Assembly (NCBI GenBank): GCA_023920165.1
Contig: CP089274.1
Location: 372,001 to 436,000 of the forward strand
Reading direction: 5' to 3'
Length of the DNA: 64,000 nt
From: Curvularia clavata
Taxonomy: Eukaryota
Position numbers and translations under genes: made by a program. Under the pieces are notes generated by a model that was not told the DNA's origin, ran no database searches, and was given only the letters and a program-made list of their open reading frames with translations. Shown here one piece after another: positions 1,479 through 8,660 of the stretch. How positions within the stretch are numbered: the first letter of the stretch is position 1; each line of letters opens with the position of its first letter.

Positions 1479-3728
1479 ATGGCGCGTGATGTTGCGGTTG
1501 ACTCTACGGAGAAAGACCACACCTACGCCATGGAAGAAATTCCCATGGAAAAGACATCATTGGCCAACTCACCAGAGCATCTCCACGAGGCCATGAAAGC
1601 TGGTCTCAGTCGCGAAGATGCCGAGTTCCTCCATAGCATCGACAAAGCCACGCAAAAGAAGATCTTCCACAAAGTCGACTGGCGCTTGTGTCCTATGCTC
1701 GCCGTCTTATACCTCATCTCTCATCTCGACAGAGCAAACATCGGGTAGGCAGTCTCACATTTGTACCCAAGAAACGTACAAACATCCGCTAACTCACCCC
1801 TTCAAGCAACGCGAAGATCGAAGGGCTCGAAAAGACCCTCGGTATGAAAGGCACAGATTACAATGTCGCCCTCATGGTTTTCTTCGTGCCCTACGTCCTC
1901 TTTGAAATCCCATCCAACATGCTTCTTGCAAAGTTCAAGCGTCCGTCGTATTACATGGGCACACTGACCTTGTGCTGGGGCACCGTCATGACTGTCATGG
2001 GCCTGGTGCAGAATCTCGCTGGGCTATGTGCTACAAGGTTCTTTCTGGGCTTGTTCGAGGCGGGATTCTTCCCAGGGGCTATTTATCTGGTCGGCCAGTG
2101 GTATCCGCCAGACCGCACGCAGTTCCGCATGGCGCTGTTTTACTGCGCGTCGGCTACGAGTGGGGCGTTCTCGGGGCTGCTGGCTGCGGCGATTGCGAAG
2201 ATGAATGGTGTGTGGGTCTCCTGGCTGATTGTGAGAGTATGACTGACTGTTTGACATAGGGATTGCTGGACTTGAAGGGTGAGTGTCGTCACAACTTCCT
2301 GGCGAAATTCTGGAAAAAGACTAACTCGTAAGAAAGCTGGCGATGGATCTTCATCCTCGAGGGAATCGTTACTGTTGTCCTGGGCATATCTGTCTTCTTC
2401 CTGCTTCCAGACTCGCCAGATCACGCAGCCGGACGATGGCTCACACACGACGAAGCGCGCTTCCTTCGCCTCACACACATAGTTACTCGCGGCCTAAAGC
2501 GTGAGCGCCGCGTCAATCCCGATGGCAAAAAGGAACGTGTGAAATGGGGTGTCATCGGCCAAGTTGTAAAAGACTGGCAGATATACCTCCAAGCCCTCGT
2601 TTTCGCCAGCAACGCCGTACCAAACTACGGTCTGAAATTCACCATGCCACAGATTCTCAAGAACAGTAAGCCATCAAGTCAGTCCAAATGGTTGTCAAAC
2701 ACTCACAACAGAACAGTGGGCTTCACCAGCACTACCGCACAACTCATGACCGCGCCGCCCTATGCCTGTGGCGCCATCTCCGCATTAATATCTTCTCTCC
2801 TCGCAGATAGATACACCTGGCGCATGCCTTTTATCGCAAGCGCCCAAGCCCTACTCATCATCGCCTACGCCATCCTCTTCGCAAAGGCAGAAGCCATAAA
2901 AGACAACGTAGCAGTATGCTACTTTGCCGTGCACGTTGCTTGCATAGGCCTGTATCCCATTCTGCCTGGCTGCAACGCCTGGACTATAAATAATCTCGCT
3001 GGTCCCGAAAAGCGAGCTGTTGGGTACGTCTGTCTTCGCAGTCACTACGTTTGTTTGTCTGTTTGTTTGCTACCCACACGTGACGCCCACACTCACTTCT
3101 ATATCACCTTTCACTGCTATATCACTTCAAGTACGCGTATATATATCGCAAAATTAGGTATCTTTCCATCAAGTCAATCAACTCGACTTAGCCTCATCGG
3201 GTGGGCCTTCTAGCACAAATAACTAACTAGGTATTTGGGCTGTGAGCTAGGAGGGGCGCCTGTCTGCCGTAGAACACTCAAAGAGTTCGAATCCCAAGTA
3301 GAACCATTTACATGAAAGTTCGATCCGGAAGGCAGGCGTCGGGCAGCAGGGGCACGTGGGAGTTTGATTGATTTGATTTTTGCTGCTTTTTTTTTACTCG
3401 CCCTCACATACATATCACCAAATAAACGGAATGGATATGCTGACTTAATCACAGTATCGCTACTATGATCTGCATAGGCAACCTCGGGGGTATAGTTGGC
3501 AGCTTCATCTTTCAAGAAAAGGAATCACCGCGATACGAAACTGGGTTCGGCTCTTCACTGTCCTTTGCAGCGGCGGGCCTGGTATCAGCATTTACGCTGG
3601 AGTTCCTATTCGCAAGGATAAATAGGCGGAATGCGAAGAAGACGGAGGAAGAGTGGCGCGCGATATATACTCAGGAGCAACTGGAGAAGATGGGGGATCG
3701 GAGTCCGTTGTTTAAGTATCACTTGTAG
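1479..3728 (+). CDS. MFS transporter, allantoate/nicotinate (ACS, Dal5/Tna1-like) family; 6 exons including a ~19-nt micro-exon
   Basis: Motifs KVDWRL, LDRANIGNAKIEG, FEIPSN, RFFLGLFEAGFFPG, GLEGWRWIF, NNLAGPEKRAVG|IATMICIGNLGG. GT-AG introns restore one frame. The last intron (3024-3454) is 431 nt; the others are ~50-60 nt. Confidence 0.93.
3168..3381 (+). ncRNA. Candidate Pol III-type structured ncRNA nested in the last MFS intron; identity unknown
   Basis: TATATATAT at 3138-3146. Terminal stem 3168-3184/3360-3377. A-box-like TAGCCTCATCGG at 3189-3200. B boxes GTTCGAATC (3285-3293) and GTTCGATCC (3318-3326). T5 at 3377-3381 and T9 at 3387-3395. Internal 15-bp helix 3255-3269/3326-3340. Confidence 0.6.
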
Positions 3729-4328: not shown

Positions 4329-7300
4329 ATGGGTTTGTTCAAAAAGTTCTTATCATCGAAAGGGAAGGTGGGACGTGTCTCAAGCCAAGAGCCTGGAGGC
4401 AGCTCGGAGGCTGAGGTTGAGCGGTTCGGCCTCTTCTTGCTCAAAAACGAAACAGTGGCCCCGCATGATTTGGAGTGAGTCTTCATTCATTGATACATGC
4501 TGATACAATATGCCTCCAGTAGAATTCAAACTGGTGATTGCATGTCTGACTAGACAGCAGTATCATAGCGGTTCATGGCTTAGGAGGTCACTACCGTGAG
4601 ACTTGGTCCGAATCTAATGGTAAATTTTGGATTTATGATTTTGTGCCTCCAAAACTCCGAGATTCTGGGGTGAATAGTCGGGTATTTTCCTATGGCTATA
4701 ACTCAAGCACTGCGTTTAGCAAGGCCGTCACAGACATCACTGATGAGGCAGCAATGCTACTTGAACGAATCAGAGGAGAGCGTAAATCGCAATCAGACCT
4801 TCATAAGCCGATTATCTTCATCGCACACAGCCTTGGCGGTATCCTGGTCAAGAAGGTGTGTGTCCAATCCGTCAGCCTCGACTACATATACTCTGTCCCG
4901 CGGGTTCTACACCCTCGCAGACCTCCCAAATTTTAACTAGAATATTAGGCCATGGTTATTGCACATGAACGTTCCCGCGAATATGGAGACTTGCTTCACA
5001 GTATCAAGGGTGCAATGTTCTTTGGAACCCCGCACCGTGGATCTGATGCTGCGTATTGGGCTGCTTATGCGGCCAGAGTCCTAAAAGTAATTCAGCTTGG
5101 CCGTGGTACAAACGTCGCGTTCGTCTCTGCATTACAGAAAAATTCGGAAGTGTTTGCGAACATATCAGAGCAATGGGTGGAGCGTACAGCTCCACTTAGA
5201 ATCAGGACCTTTTATGAAACCGAGCGATTGCATGGTGAGCTTGTAAGTCTTAATATTCCTCTTCCTGAGATCACGTAATGGCGAAGTAGCCTGTTCTACA
5301 AAATGACTGGACAGATGTAAATGTTGACCCCATTAGGTTGTGGATAAAGACTCCGCGAAGCTCGGAATAGTGAACGAGGTAGCCATCGGTATCGCTGGCT
5401 CAGACCATAGAAGCATGTGCAAATTTGGGGATTCTAATAGCCAGAAGTACAGACCAGTCCGGGATGCCATCGAAGAACTTGCAGAGCATGCACTTGGAAG
5501 GCAGATCGCTTGTGAGTAGTTCTAATTTGTTGGCACAGATGGGTTCAGCGATTCTTTATATGTCCATGATACGCCACTTCTCACTTTGAAACTATCTATA
5601 TCTTATGGCAGAATCCTGGAAGCGACAGAGTCACCTTGTATAGTTTCCTTCATAAGACTTCATGGCAGGTACAGTAGCTGACGTGTGAAGCCACTGCCAG
5701 CCATTTGAATGGAGACGATTATGCCAAGCAAATACTTCTATTCTCCGGCGTAAAAGTAGCAAAATCAAACCCTCCAGCTTCTTTCAATCCCTCGTGGGAT
5801 GATCATGCTACCGAGGAATCTCTCGAGTGGCTCACCAAGAGCGCTGAGTACAAAACGTGGGAAAACAATGAAGATAGTGCATCACTTTGGCTTCATGGCC
5901 AGCCTGGCGACGGTAAGACGTTTGCTATGGCATACGTTCTCAAGAGCTTTAGCAGGCAACCCATCTATACACAGAAACGGCTCGTGGCCTCTGTCTTCTG
6001 CTCACGTACTGATTCTGATATCGGGCTGGTCACTGCACTCGCTCTACAGTTCATCCGGAAGGACGAATATCGAGTCCATGTTGCCCAGGAAAAGATGGAT
6101 ATCACCAATTTCTATAAGAAAAAGCACAGCGACAGTGAAATAGGAAGGAACTTGTGGAAACTGCTCGAAATTTTGATTGTTACAGAGCCAGACTACGAAG
6201 CGGTCATCCTTATTGACGGAATTGATGAGCTTAGTATCCGTATGAGAAGGTCGTTCTTCGAGAGCTTCTTTGCACTTCAGACAAAGATTCAGCAAACCAT
6301 GGTAGTCCGAGTGCTCATATCATCAAGACAATATGCAGATATCAGAGAGGCTCTTGGCCATTATCCTAGCATAGAAAAGGATAAAGAAAGGAAGGGTAAA
6401 TAATTCTGCTTTGGAAAAGGACAAATAGCTAACAACACAAAAAGAGTGTCTCGCTACCCTCTTCTTCCAGGAGTGGAATTCACGAGAAACTCGTGTAGAA
6501 AAATTCGCAATCGGGGGAGGCTGGCTTTCTTCCAATGACGCGTACCAAAGATGGATATCGGACCCTACTCACAATCTGCTTTGGATAGAAGGGAAGCCTG
6601 GTAGTGGAAAATCAACCCTAGCGAAGCATATTGTGCGCAAGATTCGAGACGAGCGAACAGCTTCCCAAGCTACCAGTAGCAATCCATCCGACAGTCATGA
6701 TGACCGTAATATTCCATCAATTGAAAACGAGGCCGTTATCATCGCAGAGTTTTACTACAGCTTCCGTGGGGGCTGCAAGGAGACCAGCCACGAACTCATG
6801 CTTCGTTCAATTGTCTATCAGATCTGGAAACAAAACTATAGGCTTTTCCCCCTCATTCAAGATCAATATCGAGAATTGAAGCAGAAGGGACCGGTTCTCT
6901 GGACTTACGATGATCTGAAGTCCGCCTTGGATTCCCTTCATTTAATTGATTTCGACCTTAGAGTTTTTATCGTTGTGGATGCAATGGACGAATCCGAGAG
7001 TTACAACCGTACTGACATTCTTCAGTTTCTACACCTCCTATCGAGTCATGAAAACAATTGCAGCAGCCGTTGTAGCATCAGGTTGCTGGTTGCTAGTCGG
7101 CCTGAGATCAAGCCCGATCCGCATATTGGTCAATACGCTCACATCATCCTCCAGAAAGAGAATGACGCCGACATACGAGTCGTTGTAAGAAATTGGATTG
7201 AGACTACCGGAATGGATGATCATGACCTGTTGTCAGAAATTCAAGATTACATTGTGGCACATTCCGATGGTGTGTTTCTCTGGGTATCTCTTGTTCTCAG

Positions 7301-8660
7301 AGACCTCAAAATGTACATCGAGTCAGGGGGCTATAGACCGTCCCATCTACGAGCTTACCTACGTGGTCTTCCTAAAGAACTCGGAGGACGAGATGGATAT
7401 TATCGAGCCATGATCGATCGTTTGGTCGTTACATCTGATCAACGAACTGATCAAAGGGAGAGAATGGAGGACGGCCAGAGAATTCTAGCGTGGACAACTT
7501 TCTCAAAACGACCTTTGCTTCTCTCTGAATTGACAGATGTACTCGCTGCTCCTGCGCAGTCCAAAAGAATGGACCTATCAGACGAGAACTTGGCAGATCA
7601 CAGGCCACGTGATCTGAATCGAGGTATATTATCATTTTGTGGGGGACTAGTTGAGGTGAGGTTCGCCTCTCATCATTCTGGACTACACTAAAACATTCTC
7701 ACGCAGTTGCAGGAGGCGGAATCTGGCCAGATCGTACAACTTATCCATCTGACTGTCAGAGAGTTCCTTCTTGATCGAAGACCTCCGCCACCCGCTGAAC
7801 CATACGATCTCGATGAGACCCAGGGAGATATTGAGATCGCAAGTACGTGCTCTCGTTACCTACGTATCGTTTTCGCCTCGAAAACCCTTCCAGAGATTGA
7901 TTCGGAGTTTTCCCATGCGGAGGAATTAATAGTGCACCTTTCGAATTATCCATTGCTCACTTACGCCATCAATCATTTCGAAGACCACCTACATAATTCA
8001 GGGTCTGGCATTGAATCTACTCGAATAAGGGAGGAATTCAAGGTTTTTGTCAGGGGCCTTGGGGAAAAGGAGTCATACCCTTCCCTTCTACTTTTACGAT
8101 GGATACGAAGTCTAAATTGGACGACACTAGATTTGGACATCGACGAAGCTTCTGCAATGAATTGTCTGAACATTTTGTTGAATTGGGCCGCTAAGGCCGG
8201 TAAAGATGAAGCTTCGAACGCCCTGCTTGCGCTTGGAGCCGAGATCAATACCCGATACACTCAACAACCTACTCCCCTGACGAACGCTGCTCGATACAAC
8301 CATTTGTCTACTGTCAAACTATTGATCGAAAATCGTGCCAATGTCGACATGCAGAGTGGATACTACGGTGACGCTCTACAGGCGGCTTCATCCAAAGGCC
8401 ACGAGCAAATCGTAAAGCTGCTGCTAGAAGGAGGCGCTAATGTTAACGCGCAGTGTGGACACTATGGTAACGCTCTCCAGGCGGCTTCATCTAACGGTCA
8501 CAAGCAAGTTATAATACTGCTGCTAGAAAGAGGCGCTGATATCAACGCGCGAGGTGGACCCTACAGTACCGCTCTCCAGGCAGCGTCATCCGAAGGCCAC
8601 GAGCAAATCGTAAAGCTACTGCTAGAAGGAGGCACTGATGTTAACGCGCAGGATAGATGA
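4329..8660 (+). CDS. Fungal NLR/STAND protein: SesB-like alpha/beta hydrolase + two NACHT-type NTPase domains + ankyrin repeats (~1259 aa, 7 exons)
   Basis: Exons 4329-4474, 4561-4855, 4949-5242, 5337-5511, 5691-6395, 6445-7655 and 7707-8660 join in frame. Hydrolase motifs DIIAVHGLGG, AHSLGG, FFGTPHRGS, DHRSMCKF. P-loops LWLHGQPGDGKT and LWIEGKPGSGKST; Walker B LIDGIDE and VVDAMDE; SDGVFLWV. Ankyrin repeats of type ALQAASxxGHxQIVKLLLExGA. Confidence 0.9.

Follow-up and report, generated by a model that had tools for sequence, protein, structure and literature searches.

The fifth intron of a gene for a transporter of the MFS is 7–8 times longer than the four other introns of the gene, which are 51–62 nt, and it raises the question of whether the additional sequence has a function and, if so, whether it acts as RNA or DNA and within the transporter transcript or apart from it. 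The locus lies in a 64-kb window (the whole stretch of DNA analysed), to which all coordinates refer, and an initial annotation had placed a structured RNA gene of the RNA polymerase III (Pol III) type inside the intron. The transporter exons have MFS_1 domain matches. RNA contigs from a run with the same sequence as the window (X18) and from a run of a related fungus (X16) contain an exact 431-nt skip from 3024 to 3454, and the protein junction at this position (AVG/IATM) agrees with the orthologues, bearing out the intron as first proposed. The motif CTGAC near its 3′ end is a likely branch point, judged by its letters. Features are listed in Table 1.

Table 1. Coordinates of the host intron, the folded unit and associated sequence features.
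Feature	Position	Strand	Description
Intron 5 of MFS (allantoate/nicotinate-permease-like) transporter gene	3024–3454	+	431 nt, GT..AG, phase 2
TATATATAT	3138–3146	+	30 nt upstream of closing stem; candidate TATA provided that the unit is a gene in its own right
Core unit	3168–3381	+	214 nt; closing stem, weak 5′ region, H1, H2, 3′ linker, T5
Closing stem, 5′ arm ATCAAGTCAATCAACTC	3168–3184	+	Pairs with 3360–3377
Hairpin H1	3206–3254	+	9-bp stem, 31-nt loop; pair probability 0.95
Hairpin H2	3255–3340	+	Basal stem 11+3 bp, branched top; pair probability 0.97–0.98
Internal tandem duplication	3269–3297 and 3298–3330	+	Each begins GTAGAAC and contains a TTCGA core
Closing stem, 3′ arm GAGTTTGATTGATTTGAT	3360–3377	+	T3363 bulged; T3372 in G-U pair
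T5 (3377–3381) and T9 (3387–3395)	3377–3395	+	Sole runs of T≥4 in 3000–3500
Likely branch point CTGAC and 3′ splice site CACAG of host intron	3440–3454	+	Splice joint from contigs

The four RNA runs compared consist of contigs, which show presence and neither transcript ends nor levels. Those of X18 carry the spliced mRNA and, as presence-only data, give no cover of the unit. The sole RNA observed over it is an X16 contig that holds the intron, spans 3049–3483 and continues into exon 6, with a depth of 4.45 vs. 35 for the spliced form; since this RNA reaches exon 6, it is unspliced and does not represent a trimmed product. The open reading frame that is followed when the intron is retained (2332–3213) stops at a TAG (3211–3213) within the 5′ arm of H1, such that retention would yield a transporter lacking its last 91 residues.

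The unit is strongly folded. Its minimum free energy (MFE) is -75.9 kcal/mol (z -3.67 against shuffles of itself, with 0 of 200 equal), and after correction for GC content its fold energy lies at -2.31 sd, which would rank about sixth among the 3190 folds scanned in the window. The opposite strand folds with -56.2 kcal/mol, and a strand gap of at least this size (19.7 kcal/mol) occurs in 89 of 597 windows, so that the asymmetry of the unit as a whole is ordinary. TATATATAT, both arms of the closing stem and the T5 and T9 runs are all present where the initial annotation had read them. It had described a 17-bp pairing of the arms with one G-U and one bulge, and folding reproduces this as 14+3 bp with the G-U at 3173/3372 and a bulged T at 3363; its inner hairpin (3207–3253) is recovered as H1, larger by one nucleotide at each end. 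The closing stem has a mean pair probability of 0.90–0.94 when the unit is folded alone and is missing from the MFE structure of the whole intron. Its 5′ arm has no second match to its own sequence in the 64-kb window, and the inverted repeat that it forms with the 3′ arm ranks 19th of 40 such pairs there, indicating that inverted repeats of this quality arise by chance in the window.

The two hairpins are still present when the whole intron is folded, and both score better on the sense strand (H1, z -2.16 vs. -1.32; H2, z -4.38 with 0 of 200 shuffles equal vs. -1.70). The loop of H1 holds AACTAAC-TAG-GTATTT (3221–3236), which resembles successive branch-point, 3′ splice-site and weak 5′ splice-site signals. 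A splice joint at 3230/3231 (ACTAAC-TAG/GTATTT) was not seen in the presence-only contigs of the four runs, nor was any other alternative joint within the intron; recursive or nested splicing at this motif thus has no supporting joint in contig runs of a kind in which its absence is not demonstrable. Two CACGTG palindromes are present in the intron, one within the core (3353–3358) and one upstream (3077–3082).

Comparison with the orthologous intron of X16 reveals 3 listed changes in the 214-nt core, as opposed to 12 differences in 117 nt of flanking intron (plus five insertion events) and 14 differences at 102 third codon positions of exon 5. By the differences listed for this one orthologue, the core is 7–10 times more conserved than its surroundings (Fisher p = 4e-4 against the flank and 1.8e-5 against third codon positions). 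The completeness of the core differences is deduced from counts; were all three unlisted X16 differences to fall in the core, the values would be 0.009 and 7e-4. The nearest listed differences outside the core are at 3163 and behind 3395, where X16 has an inserted G, placing the edges of the conserved block within 5 and 14 nt of the closing stem on the differences listed. The block may extend over 3140–3394 (4 listed differences in 255 nt) and so take in the putative TATA motif and the T runs; at 3139 the relative has A>C, which leaves TATATAT. All three listed core changes are in predicted pairs: in two cases one partner alone has changed and + strand pairing is preserved (3372 T>C, G-U to G-C; 3296 A>G, A-U to G-U), in the third the pair is broken, and there are no double changes. 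Conservation is near-uniform over loops and stems. The core appears to be under purifying selection, as measured against one orthologue and with its differences taken as complete, and the 214-nt stretch probably has a function because it has changed far less than the DNA around it. The part of the original proposal that held a structured RNA to be present is thus supported by conservation and by the sense-strand fold; its promoter boxes are at chance.

A diverged second copy is present in X16. A 3303-nt contig (record 5; depth 443) holds a copy of 3228–3273 that is 87% alike, and from its loose ends the likeness runs on as far as ACTAAC in one direction and the 3′ arm of H2 in the other, spanning only ~3221–3341 and including neither the terminal repeats nor the splice sites of the intron. 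The base and 3′ arm of H2 recur in it, about 38 nt are missing from the region of the tandem duplication, and the top of H2 is much shorter. Such a copy, with the base of the stem kept and its tip varying, lies within another long transcript, which is abundant; it and the low divergence of the core are the two results above chance.

No Rfam family and no tRNA matches the unit, which the initial annotation had likewise been unable to match to tRNA, U6, SRP, RNase P/MRP or a TPP riboswitch. Rfam searches returned no matches at gathering score in the whole window and none at E≤10 in 3130–3400, and a single chance miRNA match (E 3.5) in 2950–3520; models for U6, SRP, RNase P/MRP, Y and vault RNAs, TPP and other riboswitches do not match the unit. 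ARAGORN calls no tRNA with default settings. With an 80% threshold and introns allowed it makes one poor call (3182–3305), and such relaxed calls number 116 in the window vs. 121–132 in shuffles; a tRNA or the tRNA-derived head of a SINE is rejected on these counts. A 57-residue minus-strand frame through the core is likewise rejected as a protein, with no relatives at E≤10 among 40 candidates, and X16 has scattered 1–2-nt insertions in the continuation of the same frame. Among term matches in the text of two fungal structured-RNA screens (PMC8216456, PMC5640933), transporter, MFS and permease are not mentioned.

The explanation that we favor, tentatively, treats the 214-nt unit as a module of sense-strand RNA that is under constraint, is made within the host pre-mRNA and acts on removal of the intron. 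RNA polymerase II would produce the module along with the rest of the transporter pre-mRNA, and excision of the intron would carry it away. H1 and H2 are predicted to be stable, and the 17-bp stem could close both. The likeliest role would be in cis, with folding compacting the 431-nt intron and bringing the 5′ splice site and branch point to ~200 nt apart rather than ~415; H1 may display or hide decoy branch-point and splice-site signals, and compaction and decoy together would set the efficiency with which the oversized intron is removed. The splicing, the intron-holding RNA, the stability of the fold, the conservation and the diverged second copy are observed; an effect of the structure on splicing, and any switching of it by a protein or small molecule, are inferred.

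Several observations argue for such a cis-acting module. It is situated in a real sense-strand intron, far longer than its four neighbors, of which both spliced and intron-holding RNA are seen; its core is constrained relative to flank and synonymous sites (one orthologue, differences listed), and two of the three listed changes preserve pairing on the + strand. H1 and H2 are the most secure parts of the fold (pair probabilities 0.95–0.98, persisting in the whole-intron fold, with H2 better on the sense strand), and a diverged copy is found in another long X16 transcript. Against it, the closing stem is lost from the whole-intron MFE and is of a kind that arises by chance, the GC-corrected energy is not unique and the strand gap is reached elsewhere in the window, no alternative splice joint is seen among the contigs, no cis-element family in Rfam matches, and conservation that is uniform over loop and stem suits a trans-acting RNA gene at least equally well.

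To our knowledge, structured RNAs have seldom been described from fungal introns, the exceptions being snoRNAs, the TPP riboswitch and certain autoregulatory elements for ribosomal proteins. The favored module resembles the TPP riboswitch introns of fungi (NMT1, THI4 and NCU01977-type transporters) in being a sense-strand structured RNA in a long intron with splice-like signals nearby, and, as the available text of PMC5882874 has it, the hosts of TPP introns are metabolite-transporter or biosynthesis genes whose product is truncated by retention or mis-splicing. It differs from them in that neither TPP nor another Rfam riboswitch matches it at E≤10 and no alternative joint is seen; the TPP-regulated transporters in that text are of the nucleoside, urea and amino-acid families, none of which is the MFS family of the host here. 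Regulation by TPP itself is rejected, there being no covariance-model match and NCU01977 being described there as a member of the urea-transporter family (PMC5882874). Matching none of these RNAs, lying in an oversized nutrient-transporter intron and apparently more conserved than synonymous sites, the unit is a concrete candidate for a new class, which might regulate splicing or be a small RNA hosted by the intron; if its conservation fails in more species, it would be an ordinary intron insertion.

A hosted small RNA would take the form of an excised intron that releases a stable ~210-nt trans-acting RNA, in the manner of intronic snoRNAs. Splicing and debranching would be followed by exonuclease trimming to the 17-bp closing stem, with the product acting elsewhere. 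A hosted RNA in fungi is usually signaled by a single oversized intron among short ones, and the unit shares with intron-hosted fungal snoRNAs the long intron, a folded and conserved block of ~200 nt, a terminal stem and conservation that ends with the unit, here within 5 and 14 nt of it. Loops conserved like stems, and a second copy inside another long transcript, are also consistent with release. Box C/D snoRNAs have the motifs RUGAUGA (C) and CUGA (D) at a terminal stem, and H/ACA snoRNAs an H box and an ACA 3 nt from the end. The unit differs in having neither layout and no Rfam snoRNA match: a box C/D RNA is rejected, with no TGATGA and the sole CTGA (3440) at the likely branch point, and so is an H/ACA RNA, with no ACA in 3330–3400 and with H1 and H2 abutting without a hinge. 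The intron RNA observed is, moreover, the unspliced form that extends into exon 6. A released RNA is unlikely.

A functionless, decaying element that entered or created the intron (a MITE whose terminal inverted repeats span 17 bp, a SINE derived from a tRNA or a portion of an introner-like element) would explain the inverted-repeat ends, the tandem duplication, the oversized intron and the presence in the relative of one or more diverged partial copies, and long introns, stable folds and inverted-repeat ends are shared with introner-like elements and MITEs. The MITE had been named in the initial annotation as an alternative and is disfavored, with no target-site duplication beside the inverted repeat by eye (the flanks read CTTTCC and TTTTGC) and no neutral decay of the sequence. 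A relic at one orthologous site would be expected to diverge as fast as the sequence around it, and the core is 7–10 times more conserved than that. No further copies of the unit were found in the 64-kb window, and a scan of metagenomes with a degenerate 22-mer based on the 3′ arm of H2 gave four loci, all attributable to chance (GC-rich, bacterial-looking DNA, with flanks showing no likeness). The second copy in X16 shares an internal part and neither the terminal repeats nor the splice sites. Introner-like elements are long, are known in Dothideomycetes and degenerate fast, according to the available text of PMC4457414; the core is not decayed and the likeness does not cover the whole intron, on which grounds this class is rejected. 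A search of the literature on SINEs and MITEs in Pleosporales found nothing specific. A decaying mobile or repeated element is as unlikely as a released RNA.

Under the original proposal, Pol III would transcribe the unit independently of its host gene, with a TATA box at -30, a start near 3168, internal A and B boxes, a T5 stop with T9 as back-up, and a closed-stem RNA with an oligo-U tail as its product. The geometry is coherent: TATATATAT at -30, the A-box-like TAGCCTCATCGG (3189–3200) beginning at +22, a B box, AGTTCGAATCC (3284–3294), at +117, and T runs directly 3′ of the stem, with no T4 inside the unit, as an oligo-T terminator requires. In its TATA position, box-like words and length of ~210 nt the unit resembles genes with TATA and A/B boxes (U6, SRP RNA, RNase P RNA, S. 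pombe tRNA), and in the T-run stop after its terminal stem it resembles the closed-stem, oligo-U Y and vault RNAs. Strong uniform conservation suits an RNA gene, and the conserved block may include the TATA motif and the T runs.

The promoter elements are less convincing. Two consensus B boxes had been claimed, of which the first is near the consensus (GGTTCGANTCC), with one mismatch, and the second (~3318–3328) is not, with three; B boxes with at most one mismatch number 2 in the window vs. 3.47 expected by chance, and relaxed tRNA calls are as frequent in shuffles. Both boxes derive from the tandem duplication (3269–3330) and pair with each other (3287–3292 with 3318–3323), and in the second copy the first is absent and the second altered. 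The A-box-like word lacks the invariant A14, and the D-arm-like hairpin (GCCT/GGGC) read there by the initial annotation is weaker than described, with a pair probability of just 0.17–0.18. Longer distances between A and B boxes are tolerated in yeast; in budding yeast a T5 run terminates only weakly, and Pol III genes seldom lie nested, in the sense orientation, in a fungal intron. The distance here, ~95 nt from start to start, falls outside the expected ~30–60 nt and compares with 30–40 bp in type 2 promoters (available text of PMC7279448). Nothing specific was found in the literature on Pol III promoters in Pezizomycotina. Individually, the features of a Pol III gene do not exceed chance on the scale of the window, and the unit differs from Pol III genes in this, in its box spacing, in its sense-intron location and in having no Rfam match; an independent Pol III gene is distinctly unlikely.

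Two more far-reaching interpretations, equal in standing and both rather improbable, are an undescribed Pleosporales small-RNA family (~210 nt, closed stem, TATA-assisted Pol III transcription, with a member or retro-copy in the 3.3-kb transcript) and a ligand- or protein-sensing splicing switch. The latter, if true, would have no precedent beyond the TPP class among the transporter genes of eukaryotes.

It is highly improbable that the unit works as DNA, for instance as an enhancer within the intron or a binding platform (e.g. at the CACGTG sites): the core is conserved regardless of pairing state and includes one of the two palindromes, but a 17-bp inverted repeat bounds the conserved block, an unbroken footprint of 214 nt is long for a platform, H2 folds better on the sense strand, and the change 3296 A>G would be neutral only as + strand RNA.

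The gene holding the unit encodes an MFS transporter of the allantoate/nicotinate-permease kind; its best protein relatives are from Pleosporales, with Bipolaris oryzae and B. maydis showing 95–96% identity over exon 5. The gene model, rebuilt from the window sequence and orthologue alignment, has introns of 62, 52, 58, 51 and 431 nt. The alignment also places a micro-exon encoding IAGLEG between two short introns, and several orthologue database models are 485–486 aa rather than 531 aa, without 46 of the exon 2 residues, apparently because they were annotated differently. The 431-nt intron is real: a contig identical to the window in the X18 metatranscriptome splices exon 5 to exon 6 over it, and a contig with ~95% exon identity in X16 (an RNA contig set containing a related fungus) has the matching joint at GT..AG. 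The fourth intron is likewise removed in contigs of X16 and of a further RNA set, X15.

An intron-holding X16 contig (depth 4.45, about one-eighth of the spliced form at 35) spans 3049–3483 and extends 30 nt into exon 6; the 214-nt unit (3168–3381) is thus transcribed within the pre-mRNA, in the sense direction. These RNA comparisons use assembled contigs, which cannot show discrete small RNAs or their ends. If the intron is kept, the reading frame stops at 3211–3213. A fourth RNA set, X20, has a 99%-alike contig (2979–3214) unspliced at the exon 5/intron border, together with contigs ~88% like transporter exons (2812–2958 and 3615–3721), and thus seems to hold more than one related fungus or paralogue.

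All sequence features listed by the initial annotation were recovered at their positions (see table), and the inverted-repeat arms do pair, over 14+3 bp that include a G-U pair, with a single T bulged out. Folded alone, the unit reaches −75.9 kcal/mol (z −3.67; 0 of 200 shuffles equally good), and its GC-corrected fold lies at −2.31 sd among 3190 window folds of 214 nt, where it would place about sixth. Two inner hairpins are predicted, H1 (9 bp, P 0.95) and H2 (11+3 bp, P 0.97–0.98); both are kept in the whole-intron fold, in which the closing stem gives way to other pairings. Sense-strand folding is the stronger for H2 (z −4.38 vs −1.70 antisense) and for H1 (−2.16 vs −1.32).

Positions of features in and around the transporter intron
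Feature	Position	Remarks
Short intron	2208–2259	5′ of micro-exon
Micro-exon	2260–2278	19 nt
Short intron	2279–2336	3′ of micro-exon
Oversized intron	3024–3454	431 nt
CACGTG palindrome	3077–3082	outside conserved core
TCACTKCTATATCAC, two tandem copies	3093–3125	15-nt word, 5′ of core
TATA run TATATATAT	3138–3146	
Inverted-repeat arms	3168–3184 and 3360–3377	closing stem
A-box-like word	3189–3200	
H1	3206–3254	
H2	3255–3340	
Internal tandem duplication	3269–3297 and 3298–3330	
TTCGA-containing words ('B boxes')	3284–3294 and around 3318–3328	
CACGTG palindrome	3353–3358	inside conserved core
T5	3377–3381	
T9	3387–3395	
TCACTKCTATATCAC, single copy	3404–3418	80% likeness
Downstream gene	4553–8657	+ strand

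The core diverges less than its surroundings in the one orthologue that provides the conservation evidence. Among the differences listed between X16 and the window, exon 5 has 14, all at third codon positions (14/102), and the intron has 7 substitutions in 3101–3167, 3 in the 214-nt core (3265, 3296 and 3372), and 5 substitutions with 5 insertion events in 3395–3428. On these listed differences the core (3/214) departs from the flanks (12/117; Fisher p 4e-4) and from exon-5 third positions (p 1.8e-5). Since 40 of the 43 substitution places are listed and those of the low-depth contig all keep at least 53 nt clear of either end of its alignment, we tentatively infer at most three further places, near those ends; with all three in the core the values would be 0.009 and 7e-4, respectively. 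Each of the three core changes affects a predicted pair: G-U becomes G-C at 3372, A-U becomes G-U at 3296, and U-A becomes G·A at 3265, beside a pre-existing G/A mismatch. Beyond the core, the first listed differences on either side fall at 3163 and behind 3395, which puts the limits of the conserved block near the closing stem; judged on few events, it may occupy 3140–3394, taking in the TATA and T runs. The flanks bearing TCACTKCTATATCAC are where the relative diverges most from the window.

Part of the unit recurs in a 3303-nt X16 contig (depth 443), which matches 3228–3273 with 6 differences; by our own rough estimate, a 40/46 match far exceeds what chance would give in ~26 Mb of contigs. 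At one loose end the ACTAAC word lies three bases farther from TAG, and at the other the 3′ arm of H2 is closely matched after ~38 fewer bases, so that the 3′ half of the H1 loop, the H1 3′ arm and the H2 base recur in an abundant long transcript. In this copy the top of H2 is much shorter, the first B box is missing and the second is altered. The 64-kb window contains no further copies, and a metagenome scan returned four matches only, all chance.

On the evidence of a single orthologue and a partial second copy, the unit appears to be under selection as a structured RNA of the sense strand that belongs to no known family. We tentatively favor a cis element that influences how the oversized intron is removed, which fits the presence of the unit in pre-mRNA, the intron-holding form at about one-eighth of spliced depth, and the copy in another long transcript. 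Beyond splicing, folding and conservation, we infer that H1, H2 and the closing stem would compact the intron and would show or hide decoy ACTAAC-TAG-GTATTT signals in the H1 loop, together setting the amount of intron retention; a retained intron would then end the frame within H1. A separate RNA freed from the intron after its excision would fit the uniform conservation better than such a cis element does, and is in our judgment unlikely.

The initial annotation had proposed a nested Pol III gene, which would also fit uniform conservation better than the cis element; its letters and geometry are as described, each line of support for it, viewed alone, stands at chance level, and we consider it less probable again. 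The TTCGA words are present, within the two halves of the tandem duplication, and B-box-like sites with at most one mismatch number 2 in the window vs 3.47 expected; because TTCGAA is palindromic, the two pair together inside H2 in the predicted fold (3287–3292/3318–3323). The A-to-B box distance is ~95 nt, the D-arm-like hairpin has a predicted pair probability of 0.17–0.18, and the inverted repeat comes 19th among 40 comparable pairs in the window. ARAGORN found no tRNA; with introns permitted and a threshold of 80% it called a poor 'tRNA-Gly' at 3182–3305, and relaxed calls number 116 in the window vs 121–132 in three shuffles. What remains is geometry: the TATA run begins exactly 30 nt upstream of the stem, and T5 and T9, directly after it, are the sole runs of at least four T in 500 nt. 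Of the hallmarks of a Pol III gene the oligo-T terminator is the only one that the unit clearly shows, and the label is unproven. A mobile-element relic is judged unlikely: at an orthologous site it should match flank divergence, which the core does not; no target-site duplication is visible; and what the second copy has in common with the unit is its interior and not its ends. The unit is accordingly taken as a functional sense-strand RNA.

Known RNA families offer no match: Rfam gave none at gathering score across the whole window and none at E≤10 in 3130–3400, and a single miRNA match on 2950–3520 (E 3.5) was judged chance. Tests of membership place the unit outside TPP, snoRNA, tRNA/SINE, MITE and introner-like elements. 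It resembles a hosted snoRNA in outline, and riboswitch-bearing or protein-binding introns of fungi are closest in working to its proposed action. Term searches of two published fungal structured-RNA screens found no mention of transporter, MFS or permease, and a TPP survey places its regulated transporters in families other than this one (PMC5882874).

Downstream of the transporter, the neighboring gene opens with a DUF676/alpha-beta-hydrolase part at its N-terminus, followed by two consecutive reading frames each matching NPHP3_N/NACHT and by ankyrin repeats after these. It looks like a fungal NLR, and the stops between its frames indicate that it has introns or is broken.
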